A DNA stretch of 64,000 nucleotides, from the NCBI GenBank assembly GCA_040220235.1, contig JAVJTO010000049.1; one strand, written 5' to 3'. Positions 41,194 through 47,402 of the stretch are shown here, in pieces. Below the pieces are notes generated by a model. That model made no database searches. It had not been told where the DNA came from and worked only from the letters and a program-made list of their open reading frames with translations. How positions within the stretch are numbered: the first letter of the stretch is position 1; each line of letters opens with the position of its first letter. A program made the position numbers and the translations under genes. The DNA comes from Coleofasciculus sp. B1-GNL1-01. GTDB lineage: Bacteria; Cyanobacteriota; Cyanobacteriia; Cyanobacteriales; Coleofasciculaceae.

Positions 41194-41790
41194 TTAATCG
41201 TCCAGTTCAAGTTTATGTAAGATATTCTGCTGAACTTGCTCTGGCGGTTGGTCACCGTTTATCGTTAACAGCTTTTGACGATAGTCATAGTACTCCAGGA
41301 TGGGAACCGTGCGCTCGTGAAATAACTCGATGCGGCGCGGGACAATTTCGGGATGGTCATCCAGACGAGACTTGGTTGATGGGGTGCTATCTTGAGCTTG
41401 GTTTTGGGATCGCGCCACGGAACGAGTCATCATCACTGATTCGGGTACAGTTAAGTAAATTGCCCAATCTAGCTGCTGATTTAAGTCCTCCAGCAGAAAA
41501 TCTAATTCCTCAGCTTGGAACGCGGTACGGGGATATCCCTCTAACACCCACCCTTTCGCCGTGTCAGTTTCCAGCAGGCGTTGACGCATGAATTCGATCA
41601 GGATTTCATCCGGGACTAATTCTCCCTTCTCGACATAAGGCTGCGCCTTTCGACCTAAGTCAGTTTGAGATGCGATCGCGCGACGCAAAATGTTACCACT
41701 GGAAATTTCCACGATCCCCAAATAGCGACACAACTGTCGCGCCTGTGTGCTTTTCCCTGAACCTGGACCTCCCAGAATCACCAGTCTCAC
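41194..41790 (-). CDS. adk: Adenylate kinase family protein
   Basis: [30 protein letters not shown] start with RBS; slightly divergent, may be a second paralog. Confidence 0.85.
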
Positions 41791-41931
41791 GATAATAGCT
41801 CCTCTGTTCCTAGCCTGGACAAGTCTTTCATGACAAATGTTGCACAAATCCTTTGCATCTGGGCAGGTTTTGACACTACTGACCGTCATTTTGCCACGAA
41901 TCCCCGTGGATGAACATTCTCCAGATTAAGG

Positions 41932-42040
41932 TATCTTCCCCATCTCCCTCATCTCCCTCATCTCCCTCATCTTCCCCATCTCCCTCATCTTCCCCATCTC
42001 CCTCATCTCCCTCATCTTCCCTATCTCCCCCATCTTCCCT
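41932..42040. repeat. 9-bp tandem repeat tract
   Basis: Alternating ATCTCCCTC / ATCTTCCCC units. Confidence 0.9.
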
Positions 42041-42411
42041 TCGGGACTCACTCTTGACGGACTTGTAGATATGGTGTTTGATTAGGGATGCCACTGAAAA
42101 AAATACGCTATATCTTGTTCGCTGCATCGTTGAATTTCTAGTTAGGTTCCTTGAGGTACTTGTGGGTTTTGTGATACAGTTACAATGTAGGCAGGGATCG
42201 GGCAAAAGGGAGGACGTGTTGGATTTGAGTTAAGTTGTAAACGGCTATAATCCCCAGCCCAAAAGGATTCGGTGGAATAGCGGCTTTGGGCGATCGCCAG
42301 ACATAGTGAAAAGCGAATTTTGCCAAAAAGCTAGACAAAGTGACCATGAGACACTGATCAAGGAAGGCTTGAGCAGTGTCCATCAGATTCATTGCTCTTT
42401 AATTGTTGACT

Positions 42412-43115: not shown

Positions 43116-44012
43116 ATGGCAGCGGAAGCGAGAGCGGTTCGTTTCCAGGTTGGAAACATTGAGGTTTCTGGTTATCAGCTAACCTCTGATCAGGATCAGC
43201 GTCTATTGTTCACCCACAGGCAAATCGCCGAAGTCGTGGGTAAAAGCAAGGGGACAGCGCAAAAGTTTTGTAAATCAAACGAAAACAACTTGCCAGAAAC
43301 GGTTAGGACAGTGGTTCCAGACAAACCCAGACCGATCGCGTTATCATCCTGGGATGCCGCCGTAGCATTTTGGCAATATCAAGCGGATGCAGGAAATGAG
43401 ACGGCAAAGGCTTTGGTGGAAGCGGCGAATTCCACATCCTTAGAGACTCTCCAAATTAAAACAGCCAGTGATATCGAGTCAGTTGAGACTCCCTATCCCA
43501 AAGACATCGAAGGTGCGATCGCGGCGTTACCCCAAACCGAGGAATTCCCCCTCGATAATGAACTCCAGCAACTGGATCAGGGGTTACGGTTAATCGCCAA
43601 ATGGTTAGAAGAAGCGGGATTGGATCAACGTGCGATCGCGTCTTGGAAATTGAATGTCATCAGCCAGCGTTTTCCGGCTTTAGCCAGTGCAGCCAACGAA
43701 GCACAGCAGCTTTTAGTCACCCATTCGGTTGAGGAACCATCCGGGATGATCGCCTCCCAAGTCGCTGAGAAGGTGTCACAGCAATTAGGACGAAACGTTA
43801 AAGCGGCTCAAGTCAACGCCGCACTCCATGAATTAGGCATTCAGGAATGGACTAAACCGGGTTCGAGAGAGCGACGACTTACCGAAAAAGGAAAAGCATA
43901 CGGGCGAGCCATGCTAGCCACATCTAAAACGAATGCCTGGAGTGGAGCGCAACTGAGATGGTTTGATAATGTTGTGCCGTTGTTATGTGAATATTTGAAA
44001 CCTTCCCAATAA
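43116..44012 (+). CDS. Phage antirepressor-like DNA-binding protein (KilAC-like C-terminus)
   Basis: N-terminal FTHRQIAEVVG helix; C-terminal ASQVA..AAQVNAALHELG..LTEKGKAYG...LRW. Confidence 0.6.
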   Translation: MAAEARAVRFQVGNIEVSGYQLTSDQDQRLLFTHRQIAEVVGKSKGTAQKFCKSNENNLPETVRTVVPDKPRPIALSSWDAAVAFWQYQADAGNETAKALVEAANSTSLETLQIKTASDIESVETPYPKDIEGAIAALPQTEEFPLDNELQQLDQGLRLIAKWLEEAGLDQRAIASWKLNVISQRFPALASAANEAQQLLVTHSVEEPSGMIASQVAEKVSQQLGRNVKAAQVNAALHELGIQEWTKPGSRERRLTEKGKAYGRAMLATSKTNAWSGAQLRWFDNVVPLLCEYLKPSQ

Positions 44013-44035: not shown

Positions 44036-44515
44036 TTAGCCATAATCTATCGGTAATGAAAGAGGTTGTGTTGGATTCTCGGTACTCCACTGCTCTAGAA
44101 TCTTTTGCAAACGAGCTAAGGCATCTTCATCGCTACTAAACTTAATTTCAGAAATAACAGTGGGGATACCTCTAGGGAATCGTGATATATTTTTATCTTT
44201 TTCGTAAAGTAGAATCAAAGGGATCTTATGGATTTCTGCATAAGCTAATTCCATGCCAACGCCAAAAGAAGGACAACCCAGGTAGGCGATGACTAAATCT
44301 GACGAACTAACTTGGCGCTTGTCTGTCTCAAAAACTTGTCGAGGGCTAACATCAGGGTTATTAATGGGATCGGTTTTAAGATGGGGAACATAGGCTTGAA
44401 ATTCCATCGTTTCACAAAGCGCCCCAATCGATTCATAAAATACCTTGAGTTTTAAAGGATTTTCAACTCCAGTTAATGCACCTGAAATGTAAATTTGTGC
44501 TTTATTTTGATTCAT
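44036..44515 (-). CDS. NDT/DNPH1(Rcl)-like nucleotide N-glycosidase
   Basis: IYISG, VFETD..V..SDLVIA...PSFGVGMELAYA, ISRFPRG. Confidence 0.85.
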   Translation of the reverse strand: MNQNKAQIYISGALTGVENPLKLKVFYESIGALCETMEFQAYVPHLKTDPINNPDVSPRQVFETDKRQVSSSDLVIAYLGCPSFGVGMELAYAEIHKIPLILLYEKDKNISRFPRGIPTVISEIKFSSDEDALARLQKILEQWSTENPTQPLSLPIDYG

Positions 44516-44602
44516 AATTTAATAGATAAAGATGCCTAATTAAATTGTTGAATTCAGGATAATTTATTTCAAATATATATATTTTTTTCTAAAATGAATT
44601 CA

Positions 44603-45340
44603 TTATTTAGCTTTTAATATCTCGACAACAAAAGGACTTATACCACCGATAACAGCCGCTAAAGAAGCCCCGATAACTGGATTAATTAAAGAAGTGAAAA
44701 TACCAATAGCTAAAGCGACAACTGCAAAAGAAGCCATCCAGAATAATCGAGTTTGACGTTCCCTTCTTTCTCTGTCTTTCTCGTATTGTGTTTCTTGCGC
44801 CTGTCGTTGTTTTTCTTGATTAGCCTTCTCTCTAAGCTGCTGCCAGATGTCGTCTCTGTCAGGAGGTCTTCCGACAGAGCCTTTGGCTTGAGATTCTACT
44901 CTGAAAAAGCAAATTGTACACAAAGAATCTCCAAATCTAAGTTCTACAGGACTATCACGATAATTGTGGCAAGAGATTAAGAGTTTGCCAGTCCATCCTG
45001 GATCTACAGTAGTAGAGATGTGAGATAATCCTTGAGAAGTAACTCGTGTAGCCATTGCATGAATAGTTGCTCCTACTTCCCTGGATAAACTAATCGACTC
45101 CAATGTCTCAATCACTACTGTATCCCTAGGTGCAATTTCAATTCGACCGTTTCTTTCAATCTCTACTTCAAGTTTATTATTCCAGGAGAATCCTCTTTGA
45201 CCAACTCGTAAATCATAACCAACAGGTGTCAAATATTTTTTTTCAAAAGGCTCTATTGCAATTCCCGTATCGGGATGTATTTTTTTCGATTCTATTTGTT
45301 TTTCAATATCAACATCGCTTAACACAGTCCTTTCCCTCAA
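44603..45340 (-). CDS. dCTP deaminase/dUTPase-fold protein with C-terminal coiled coil and two TM helices
   Basis: LSDVDI, GYDLRVG, VDPGWTGKL; C-terminal hydrophobic hairpin; alternative GTG start 45325. Confidence 0.8.
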   Translation of the reverse strand: MRERTVLSDVDIEKQIESKKIHPDTGIAIEPFEKKYLTPVGYDLRVGQRGFSWNNKLEVEIERNGRIEIAPRDTVVIETLESISLSREVGATIHAMATRVTSQGLSHISTTVDPGWTGKLLISCHNYRDSPVELRFGDSLCTICFFRVESQAKGSVGRPPDRDDIWQQLREKANQEKQRQAQETQYEKDRERRERQTRLFWMASFAVVALAIGIFTSLINPVIGASLAAVIGGISPFVVEILKAK

Positions 45341-45366
45341 TTATTAAGTTTGGCATGAGATCACAG

Positions 45367-45909
45367 TTATACGCTAGCTCTAGCAACAGACGTCGGATTT
45401 AATAGAAATGATGCTGCTCGTTTTGCTGTTTCCTCAGATAGCTGAATTTTCTTAAGGGTAACTAAACCCTCATTGATAAATGAATCTCTAACTAGAATAC
45501 TGCCTCCACTGTTAAAGGGAGTTTCATAAAAGACTTCATGGATTCCAGCAGAAATGATCAGTTTTAGACAAGAAAGACAAGGTTCTAGGGTGACGTAAAT
45601 ACTGGCATCAGTCGTCGCAATGCCATGTTTAGCGGCTTGTGCCAGCGCATTGGCTTCAGCGTGAACAGCGCGAGATGGCATCTCTTTACTGGCATCACAG
45701 CTACTTAAACCTGGATAACAATATCCTTGTTCTGTACAATGAGCTGATCCGGCGGGTGAGCCATTGTAGCCTGTGGCTAAAACTTGTTTGTTTTTAACAA
45801 TTACCGCACCAACAGGAAAAGCCAAGCACGTTGAGCGAGTAGCGGCAAGTTTTGCCAGCATGAGGAAGTATTCATCCCATGTTGGTCGATCTTGATTCAA
45901 TGGTGTCAT
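45367..45909 (-). CDS. dCMP deaminase (ComEB-like)
   Basis: RPTWDEYF, RSTC, TGYNG, HAEANA, PCLSC. Confidence 0.93.
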   Translation of the reverse strand: MTPLNQDRPTWDEYFLMLAKLAATRSTCLAFPVGAVIVKNKQVLATGYNGSPAGSAHCTEQGYCYPGLSSCDASKEMPSRAVHAEANALAQAAKHGIATTDASIYVTLEPCLSCLKLIISAGIHEVFYETPFNSGGSILVRDSFINEGLVTLKKIQLSEETAKRAASFLLNPTSVARASV

Positions 45910-47402
45910 TTACTATCCTGACTATAGGGCTTATTTGTTTTCAGTGATTCAGCAGCTTTTTGTACCTCCATTCCCAAATAAGCAGCATGGTCTGGTTGAA
46001 TGGCTGGGGACGCTGCACAAATTTCTCTAATCAGCTTTAGGGGATTTTTGCCTGAGTAGCAAGCCACGACTTCGCCACTACCAGGAGTTGTTTGTTTAAC
46101 AACGATTTTGTCGGCTTCAATTTCAATTAAAAAGTTACCTACAGGGTCATAAAAGTCTCGATTTCGACAAATTGCAGGATATTGTTTTCGGATTAACTGA
46201 TCCGCATTTTCCCAGGTGTCATCATAAATATGAGCGCTCTGACTGATAGTAATTAATGGTCCCATGCGTAAGTTATAACTAGAGCGCTGGGCGATTTCGT
46301 CTCGGATATACTGTTGTAGGGCGCGTAGTCCCATGGCATTCGAGGGCCACGCCATATACATATCATTACTGCGGAGAGTCGCGGTCAGTGATAACTCATT
46401 ATCGACAACCCTCGCCCAAAGGTGATTCAGACAAGGACTACCCCCTTGTTCGTGGTCTTTAACATCCCACAGAGACATCACTGCACTCGCCGCATCAATT
46501 TCTCCAATTAATTTGGTAATAATCTGCTCAATTTGGTCTTTGCCAAACCACGAACGGAGACGTTGACCGTAAGTATATTTCACACCTTCTCGATAAGGCG
46601 CATCATCTAAAATTTGGTGAATGTACTCCTGAATAAAAGCGCGATCGCAGGGCAAATAGTTGGGTTCAGGGAAATAGAACCCTGGGGGTTCATCCGTCAC
46701 CACTGCCATTAAATCAATTAATTCTTGCCATTGCCCATCATAGCCCGTGGGTCGAAGGGTTCCCGTTGTTTTAATCCGATGAATAATTTTGACCCAGGTT
46801 TCAGCAATCGTCTTGCCTTCAATCCGATGTCCGTAACGTGATCCAGGTAAGACGGTTGGCACGGCTTCTGTTTGGGGAAATTCTAGCGGCGCACCCCAGG
46901 GTTCAACCCTATCCCTCACCGCATAAGACTTAACCTGACTCACCGCTTCAGCTATTGATTTTACCTCTTGCCACTCCACCGATTGCCGGAGAGTCTCCAA
47001 AGCATTAGCCTCAATTTCAATATCGATATAGCCAGGAATCGCAGACTGAATCACCCAACAGCGACGCCCTGTATCGCTGAACCCTTCAGTAAACCCATTG
47101 CGGAAAAAATCTAATAAGCATATCCCCCCCCCAGCATTTTGGTCTTCCTTCGTGGCGTTGAGAACAACCAAAAAGCGGACATGAGGATTCGCTAATAGAT
47201 TTCGGATCAGCAGGCTGATACCCCGCGTCGGACTGTAGAGTTGACCGATAACAGCAAACTCGTGAGGTTGTAACTGTTTCGCGATCGCACCTTTTACCGT
47301 CCAACCTGTAACCACTGCTGTCTGACCCATACCGTAAATAAGCTGGTTGGGCTTGTGTAGGGGTTTGTACTGGAATTGAGTGATCTGAGCGCTAGCTGTC
47401 AT
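45906..47402 (-). CDS. thyA: Thymidylate synthase (archaeal-type core) fused to MtrA-like N-terminal and DUF4346 C-terminal domains
   Basis: YTYGQRLR, SPCL (catalytic Cys), RSND, WPSN, SAHIY; N-terminal GISLLIRNLLANPHVRFL; C-terminal DPVGNFLI...HAAYLGME. Confidence 0.85.
   Translation of the reverse strand: MTASAQITQFQYKPLHKPNQLIYGMGQTAVVTGWTVKGAIAKQLQPHEFAVIGQLYSPTRGISLLIRNLLANPHVRFLVVLNATKEDQNAGGGICLLDFFRNGFTEGFSDTGRRCWVIQSAIPGYIDIEIEANALETLRQSVEWQEVKSIAEAVSQVKSYAVRDRVEPWGAPLEFPQTEAVPTVLPGSRYGHRIEGKTIAETWVKIIHRIKTTGTLRPTGYDGQWQELIDLMAVVTDEPPGFYFPEPNYLPCDRAFIQEYIHQILDDAPYREGVKYTYGQRLRSWFGKDQIEQIITKLIGEIDAASAVMSLWDVKDHEQGGSPCLNHLWARVVDNELSLTATLRSNDMYMAWPSNAMGLRALQQYIRDEIAQRSSYNLRMGPLITISQSAHIYDDTWENADQLIRKQYPAICRNRDFYDPVGNFLIEIEADKIVVKQTTPGSGEVVACYSGKNPLKLIREICAASPAIQPDHAAYLGMEVQKAAESLKTNKPYSQDSK

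Follow-up and report, generated by a model that had tools for sequence, protein, structure and literature searches.

What a thymidylate synthase operon gains from a membrane protein and a nucleotide hydrolase is the question raised by a four-gene run in Coleofasciculus sp. B1-GNL1-01 (GenBank assembly GCA_040220235.1), which we followed up in a window of 64,000 nucleotides (nt) of contig JAVJTO010000049.1 (the window being the whole stretch of DNA that was analyzed, numbered from its first letter). The run lies on the minus strand and comprises a thymidylate synthase (TS) fusion (open reading frame [ORF] 1, 47402-45906, 498 amino acids [aa]), a dCMP deaminase (ORF 2, 45909-45367, 180 aa), a membrane protein with a Dcd-like fold (ORF 3, 45340-44603, 245 aa from a TTG start), and a DNPH1-type hydrolase (ORF 4, 44515-44036, 159 aa). 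An earlier note, made from the sequence alone, had described four co-oriented genes with a 4-nt overlap and then gaps of 26 and 87 nt, exactly as we find them; with the database start of ORF 3 at residue 6 (240 aa), the gap to ORF 2 would be 41 nt. We conclude that genes 1 and 2 are very probably the cell's only de novo route to deoxythymidine monophosphate (dTMP), the deaminase providing dUMP and a ThyA-fold homodimer turning it into dTMP, at a slot that holds dcd and thyX in relatives. Genes 3 and 4 could well be a Metis-like sensor/effector and its cleaner for a uracil-type deoxynucleotide, a proposal that we make tentatively and hold at a little under an even chance.

The dTMP route is supported by what the genome contains and by how the genes replace each other among relatives. 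A single PF00303 gene is present in the assembly (8.66 Mb, 100% complete), in which we found no ThyX, thymidine kinase, or FolA. Among 41 relatives, the TS fusion is present in 20 and ThyX in 19, never both, and the two genomes lacking both have a completeness of 89% and 67%. The slot of the operon, rph-adk-cobO, is filled by dcd and thyX in the same-genus genomes G002, G004, and G006 (G and L numbers are our handles for genomes and loci). Given that the fusion is the sole copy and excludes ThyX, it is expected to synthesize dTMP, and the idea of an extra or defense TS was dropped on the same grounds. The split agrees with a COG table of 31 cyanobacteria, which lists 23 with ThyX and 8 with ThyA (PMC5954106). 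The ComEB-like deaminase (45367-45909, minus strand) has the HAE and PCxxC zinc motifs and matches PF00383 with 95 bits against a cutoff of 25. It occurs in 13 of the 41 relatives and canonical dcd in 27, with both in a single genome (G011, 88% complete), and is thus predicted to replace canonical Dcd, supplying dUMP where Dcd has been lost. An assignment as an anti-phage dCTP deaminase (NF041025, PADLOC dCTPase) was rejected, since the 180-aa protein reaches 91 bits against 400 and matches the deaminase part only. The earlier note had offered an alternative dTMP pathway with built-in sanitization; genes 1 and 2 are indeed a dTMP route, but the main one rather than an alternative.

The TS fusion (45906-47402, minus strand), annotated by NCBI as "thymidylate synthase," consists of three domains, with family matches to PF00303, PF14251, and, weakly, MtrA PF04208, and its predicted structure is of high quality (predicted local distance difference test [pLDDT] of 95.7, predicted template modeling score [pTM] of 0.91). 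An MtrA-like domain (residues ∼7 to 171, 46890-47384) is followed by a short archaeal-type TS core (46164-46844; TIGR03283 match with an E value of 4e-36, under the cutoff) and a PterinBD-DUF4346 domain (45915-46148), all on the minus strand. The family is deep, with 407 clusters at 50% identity reaching an E value of 1e-30, and the core carries E227, C324, R344, S345, D347, N355, H391, and Y393. In 110 diverse relatives, S345, N355, and H391 are kept throughout, C324 and R344 in 109, Y393 in 108, and D347 in 106; N355 is presumably the residue that specifies dUMP. The DUF4346 residue H472 is kept in 109. The Arg-Arg pair through which the second subunit binds phosphate is A305-S306 here, with RR in 22 and AS in 21 of the 110. 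A monomeric TS following this loss was considered and dropped, as a two-copy model passed with a score of 0.90 against 0.00 for the best control (89% agreement of contacts, pLDDT of at least 85), at a mark that 20 of 30 solved pairs and 1 of 23 single chains reach. In this model the two copies meet through the usual TS beta-sheet, and helix 470-482 of the DUF4346 domain packs on its mate. Part of this pass may reflect memory, since TS dimers have been solved. A cobalamin enzyme was likewise dropped: the presumed cobalt ligand of MtrA, the His within its QGHI stretch, falls opposite Q88, at a gappy, poorly conserved column that has no conserved His, and the adjacency to cobO is that of the ancestral dcd slot, the same in ThyX genomes. 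A stand-alone DUF4346 gene (G000:C15:38582-38899) shares the HAxYLGxE motif and adjoins psaL-like and GNAT-like ORFs (labels assigned by eye); it offers no folate clue. A literature search found nothing on DUF4346, the TS fusion, or the pair of membrane protein and hydrolase, and Nicastro et al. (2023) may cover PterinBD-DUF4346 or ParB-CE neighborhoods.

The dihydrofolate expected from the fusion would be recycled by an enzyme other than FolA. To count this we used an unbiased sample of 301 genomes of the phylum, on which the co-occurrence figures below also rest. FolA was not found in 43 of the 52 genomes with a fusion-length TS (a search that did not extend to FolM or RibD-type reductases), and was present in the other 9 and in all 3 genomes with canonical ThyA; G227 and G328 were set aside as short or spurious. 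A search for R67-type dihydrofolate reductase (DHFR) matched nothing anywhere, its controls included. One count weighs against chemistry free of DHFR: in family f7, FolA occurs in 9 of 22 fusion carriers and in 1 of 15 others, an enrichment that suggests ordinary dihydrofolate-producing chemistry. In the accessible text of PMC1971073, DHFR is listed as missing in Prochlorococcus, so a cyanobacterial reductase of another kind may serve both TS types. The fusion also occurs in 68 viral loci (L100 to L167, 51 to 75% identity), near nrdA in 34 and nrdB in 26, and no DHFR, membrane protein, or hydrolase was seen in these loci, 36 of which span at least 10 kb; among cultured phages, no record reaches 80% coverage of the fusion. 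With a ThyA-type enzyme in so many genomes that gave no FolA match, the long-standing question of how cyanobacteria without FolA recycle dihydrofolate becomes open to test.

We then asked what is attached to this route. Gene 3 (44603-45340, minus strand) combines a head with the P45/Dcd fold (residues ∼6 to 150), a coiled coil formed by a 60-residue helix, and a hydrophobic C-terminal hairpin (residues ∼197 to 244, 44609-44752, minus strand). Its family is PF22769 with a hydrophobic C terminus; Kyte-Doolittle 19-mer windows starting at residues 197 to 226 peak at up to 2.2, and the hairpin is present in all 37 aligned relatives with a peak hydropathy of at least 1.6. The closest folds of the head are the Thermococcales dUTPases (P45) 9ln0 and 8y1w (template modeling score of 0.87 to 0.91 by target, root mean square deviation [rmsd] of 1.1 to 1.7), and an ESM Atlas search returned only clusters labeled DCD. 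Motifs 1 and 3 of dUTPases are present (D43, D113, and W116), and E81, P114, N126, and W/Y116 occur in all 91 members of the family. The motif-2 Ser, the Dcd Glu, and the motif-4 Gln are each kept in none of the 91, and two patterns for the C-terminal arm (motif 5) matched none of them either. The catalytic residues of Escherichia coli Dcd, which we take to be S111 and R115, together with the catalytic Glu E138, correspond to A97, S102, and S123 here, and the Ser, Arg, and Glu are kept in 0, 3, and 0 of the 91. TIGR02274 scores 74.8 bits against a cutoff of 92.8. This residue profile is that of a predicted binder, not an enzyme, and we refer to gene 3 as a pseudo-dUTPase and candidate sensor/effector; that it is the genome's Dcd was dropped because the deaminase residues are absent. 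The domain calls of the earlier note stand for all four genes, with "Dcd-like" valid as a label of the fold only.

Gene 4 (44036-44515, minus strand) is a predicted DNPH1/Rcl/MilB-type N-hydrolase of deoxynucleoside monophosphates (dNMPs) with its catalytic residues intact, and thereby the candidate cleaner. Its PF05014 match is just under the cutoff (27.4 versus 28.8 bits), and MilB and BcmB match it as well as DNPH1 does. H45, D65, S83, E89, and S111 align with Rcl and Y9 aligns with 7m5h; all but S83 of this catalytic and phosphate-binding set are invariant in 28 sequences. In L189, L196, L207, and L264, the hydrolase and a dCMP deaminase share one reading frame of 323 to 338 aa, and in L198 (641-1627) a homologue lies directly 5′ of the gene for the large subunit of ribonucleotide reductase.

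The four genes are not together by chance, as 26 of 27 close-clade loci, in Nostoc, Scytonema, Calothrix, Microcoleus, Lyngbya, and others, hold all of them, with cobO or adk adjoining in 23 of the 27. The earlier note's tie of the last two genes to each other and to thyA thus holds across many genera. Within the cluster the pair behaves differently from genes 1 and 2: median identity across 26 genomes is 54% for the membrane protein, the fastest-changing gene of the four, and 64% for the hydrolase, versus 75% for the TS and 83% for the deaminase, and the ratio of nonsynonymous to synonymous substitution rates (dN/dS) is 0.20 to 0.27 for ORFs 3 and 4 versus 0.06 to 0.09 for the TS and deaminase in two pairwise comparisons. 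The last two genes had been called AT-richer, and their GC content of 37.3%, against 45.5% for the genome, is undercut by only 1.7% of 6,559 windows of the same size. GC content at third codon positions is 0.43 in the TS gene and drops to 0.26 to 0.30 in the deaminase gene as well as in ORFs 3 and 4, which places the shift in composition between the first gene and the second.

Across the phylum sample, 12 genomes have the hydrolase, and every one of them also has the membrane protein (found in 24 of the 301) and the TS fusion (52 of 301); the remaining 40 fusion genomes are without it. In the other 12 genomes with the membrane protein, dut adjoins it in 4, dcd in 7, and a defense-island setting was seen in 1. 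Six genomes have a dCMP deaminase and lack the membrane protein, and in four of these no dut or hydrolase was seen, suggesting that growth requires neither. In G327 the membrane and hydrolase genes are frameshifted together, and in G007 foreign DNA interrupts the membrane gene. The pair is dispensable, fast-evolving, and jointly decaying. An exception in its distribution is G011, a genome with thyX and dcd, where the hydrolase sits on a contig that is cut just upstream. An Anaerolineae locus has dcd, the membrane gene, and the hydrolase, without a TS. On a quick tree of gene 3, the hydrolase label changes 5 times versus 25 when shuffled, so that partners track the clade. The hydrolase count on this tree (62 of 91) is too high, as many of its loci had been retrieved through the hydrolase. 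A phage origin of the pair was rejected, with the membrane protein at one distant locus and the hydrolase at two in viral contigs.

The anatomy of gene 3, its residue loss, and the co-occurrence and dispensability of the pair are observations; from them we infer nucleotide binding, membrane toxicity, and phage defense. The pseudo-dUTPase head would bind, and not turn over, a uracil-type deoxynucleotide, the coiled coil would relay this binding to the membrane hairpins, and the infected cell would be arrested or killed. In healthy cells the hydrolase would clear traces of the nucleotide, such that only a phage-driven flood of it would set off the effector. 5-Hydroxymethyl-dUMP (hm-dUMP) is a product of a TS side reaction, and because the hydrolase of cyanobacteria occurs only with the fusion and the membrane protein, one economical model has small amounts of hm-dUMP escaping from the TS and being removed by the hydrolase, until phages with 5-hydroxymethyluracil (hmU) or 5-hydroxymethylcytosine (hmC), or genome breakdown, overwhelm the hydrolase. 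Besides this trace by-product of the host, hm-dUMP would come in bulk as the product of hmU phages or from the dCMP deaminase acting on hm-dCMP, and a cell that senses it would recognize hmU and hmC phages from the very precursor they use. A surge of plain dUMP or dUTP through the dCMP deaminase would be an equally likely signal. For the ligand we accordingly find hm-dUMP, or another 5-substituted dUMP, and dUMP/dUTP from genome breakdown plausible in the same degree, each somewhat short of probable, and anything else a good deal less so; methyl-dCMP is one further candidate, because the genome has 7 near-full-length matches to C5 methyltransferases. The full proposal, which we think possible but rather unlikely as a whole, is an anti-phage system that would form a pyrimidine counterpart of Metis within a dTMP operon: an inactive dUTPase with a membrane hairpin would respond to a uracil-type deoxynucleotide, in the boldest version hm-dUMP, at a threshold set by the DNPH1-type hydrolase and with the signal supplied through the dCMP deaminase.

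Several observations weigh against this proposal. D113 of dUTPase motif 3 is kept here and in 63 of the 91 family members, leaving room for weak hydrolysis. PADLOC gave no match for the membrane protein or the hydrolase, and 23 of the 24 membrane-protein copies in the phylum are at a dTMP/dcd locus and not in defense islands. Gene order is steady across many genera of the main clade, steadier than that of most defense systems, and the dN/dS of the pair, from only two pairwise comparisons, is well below 1 (the neighboring 298-aa ORF described below reaches 0.12 to 0.19). The co-occurrence counts overstate the association, as kin are not independent, and since dcd is the default neighbor at the locus, its 7 pairings with the membrane gene are weak evidence. 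No recognized hydrolase lies within 1.5 kb in 6 of 91 membrane-protein loci. Conversely, the hydrolase adjoins the TS fusion without a membrane gene in three noncyanobacterial loci (L215, L219, and L220), which, together with the presence of the fusion in all 12 hydrolase genomes, favors a TS-linked clean-up role.

These last points belong to the reading that all four genes are metabolic, which we judge rather unlikely. Here the hydrolase would remove hm-dUMP or faulty dNMPs from an unusual TS, and the membrane protein would be a slow dUTPase or a harmless pool regulator that replaces dut and dcd. The locus is fixed and housekeeping, the closest folds of gene 3 are true dUTPases, and no trimeric or dimeric dUTPase or canonical Dcd was found in the genome, though one of these searches had a weak control. 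Against it stand the loss of three catalytic positions in every one of the 91 membrane proteins and the intact dut beside a relative in 4 of the 24 genomes, so that mere replacement of dut does not explain the gene. The hydrolase, moreover, is missing from most fusion genomes and from all 68 phage loci, and the membrane hairpin and the joint decay are left unaccounted for. The sanitization of TS products put forward in the earlier note is weakened by the same distribution, the hydrolase of the sampled genomes always coming with the membrane protein, while its other option, a module appended to the dTMP genes, applies to genes 3 and 4, which are dispensable.

Phage proteins that bind or inhibit host dUTPase or Dcd exist, and in a second alternative, which we consider improbable, the pseudo-dUTPase head is a bait for them: binding of the phage protein would trigger the hairpin, and the hydrolase would deplete dNMPs as a second arm. 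This would suit the rapid divergence of gene 3, its highly variable motif-2 loop, and the several distant clades that occupy the same slot on the quick tree, as well as the near relatives in run X1, which match the TS and deaminase genes (21 differences in 1,597 bases) and leave 44132-45064 uncovered at 88% likeness. The pocket residues, however, are invariant, and partners that track the clade fit a link through a small molecule better. Finally, it is very improbable that the TS fusion is a base-modifying enzyme (a dUMP hydroxymethylase or flavin hydroxylase) in an operon making and controlling a modified nucleotide. In favor of this reading, the best of its structural matches to TS-fold proteins (Z scores of 18 to 23) is the flavin adenine dinucleotide-dependent dCMP monooxygenase 9iqc (Z of 23.2, rmsd of 2.1, 204 residues aligned), followed by MilA (Z of 21.2) and ahead of ThyA (Z of 19.6), the Arg-Arg pair is lost, and one Bacillota copy neighbors HAD, ParB-CE, and a Dcd-like membrane gene. 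Against it, we found no second source of dTMP in the genome, the exclusion of ThyX is complete in 41 genomes, and N355 is invariant.

Distant relatives of gene 3 do occur in defense surroundings. Enrichment in defense islands, raised in the earlier note, was not found at this locus and was seen for two of them: in L268 (G043), a methyltransferase and a Dcd-like membrane gene lie between PDC-M54A and a short Argonaute system, and in L177 (2326-9576; G018), a locus outside the sample with the 24 phylum copies, a type I restriction-modification system has a Dcd-like membrane gene and dut inserted between its hsdR and hsdM genes. L179 (519-6129; G017) groups a helix-turn-helix-like ORF with genes for an IrrE-type peptidase, PF18723, and MazG and an unannotated 274-aa ORF, and its other strand carries a distant Dcd-like membrane gene. 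In L047 (3321-9340; G026), a P-loop protein and a gene with the 5-hmdU DNA kinase helical domain (PF18723) precede the TS fusion, which is followed by a 568-aa second TS-fold gene, possibly an hmU-type modification set in a cyanobacterial chromosome. The Bacillota locus L087 (4202-8512) has a membrane protein, a Dcd-like membrane gene, HAD, ParB-CE, and the TS fusion in one run, so the fusion may have been recruited into conflict systems.

As for the surroundings of the operon, the window contains a 298-aa ORF (43116-44012) with no confident family, which is kept in the genus beside either TS cassette, and a repeated element between adk and cobO (41644-42265), judged from very high contig depth in run X1. 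A scan for promoters and terminators gave chance levels (10 versus 8.1 and 4 versus 3.5). Three RNA runs yielded no mapped reads and hence no information on expression. The locus attracts mobile inserts, with the fusion of G020 split around long ORFs (L054 and L055), and thyX and dcd carry in-frame inserts in L175, L182, L183, and L047 (10879-11937), labeled by eye as introns or inteins.

If the sensor/cleaner proposal is true, the sensing of nucleotide danger extends from N6-methyl-dAMP (m6dAMP) and dTTP to uracil-type nucleotides, a widespread family now mislabeled "dCTP deaminase" gains a function, and DNPH1-like enzymes gain a bacterial role. The components can be set beside known systems one by one. 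The fusion resembles short archaeal-type ThyA (PF00303; TIGR03283) in its fold, catalytic Cys, RSxD, Asn, and HxY, in its predicted homodimer, and in excluding ThyX, but adds the MtrA-like and DUF4346 domains, has Ala-Ser in place of Arg-Arg, and is mostly carried by genomes in which FolA was not found. Its N-terminal domain shares the fold of MtrA, the corrinoid subunit of methanogen Mtr (5laa; Z of 17.1, rmsd of 2.4, 149 residues aligned), without the conserved cobalt-ligand His. Gene 3 shares its fold and the GYDL and DPGW motifs with the Thermococcales dUTPase P45 and the dCTP deaminase Dcd, but lacks the motif-2 Ser, the motif-4 Gln, and the Dcd Glu, and a coiled coil and hairpin replace the C-terminal arm. 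In gene 4, the Tyr, His, Asp, Glu, and phosphate-binding serines align with those of DNPH1/Rcl, MilB, and BcmB, but the protein is distant (profile E value of ∼1e-5) and tied to a membrane pseudoenzyme. For the module as a whole, the nearest parallels are in logic only. In the accessible part of the Metis preprint, type II Metis joins a membrane effector to a cleaner enzyme that keeps the signal nucleotide under the effector threshold, and the authors expect further types sensing other modified bases (bioRxiv 10.1101/2025.11.05.686725); in Clover, as the available portion of that paper describes it, a pyrimidine dNTP (dTTP) can be the phage cue (PMC12265719). Our pair shares with type II Metis (membrane effector MisC and cleaner MisB) and Clover a nucleotide-binding effector that would be restrained by a partner enzyme. 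It differs from type II Metis in building this from dUTPase and NDT folds rather than an unannotated MisC and a HAD cleaner (PF13419; a HAD partner was seen only in L087), in a pyrimidine instead of m6dAMP as the proposed signal, and in its place at a housekeeping locus.

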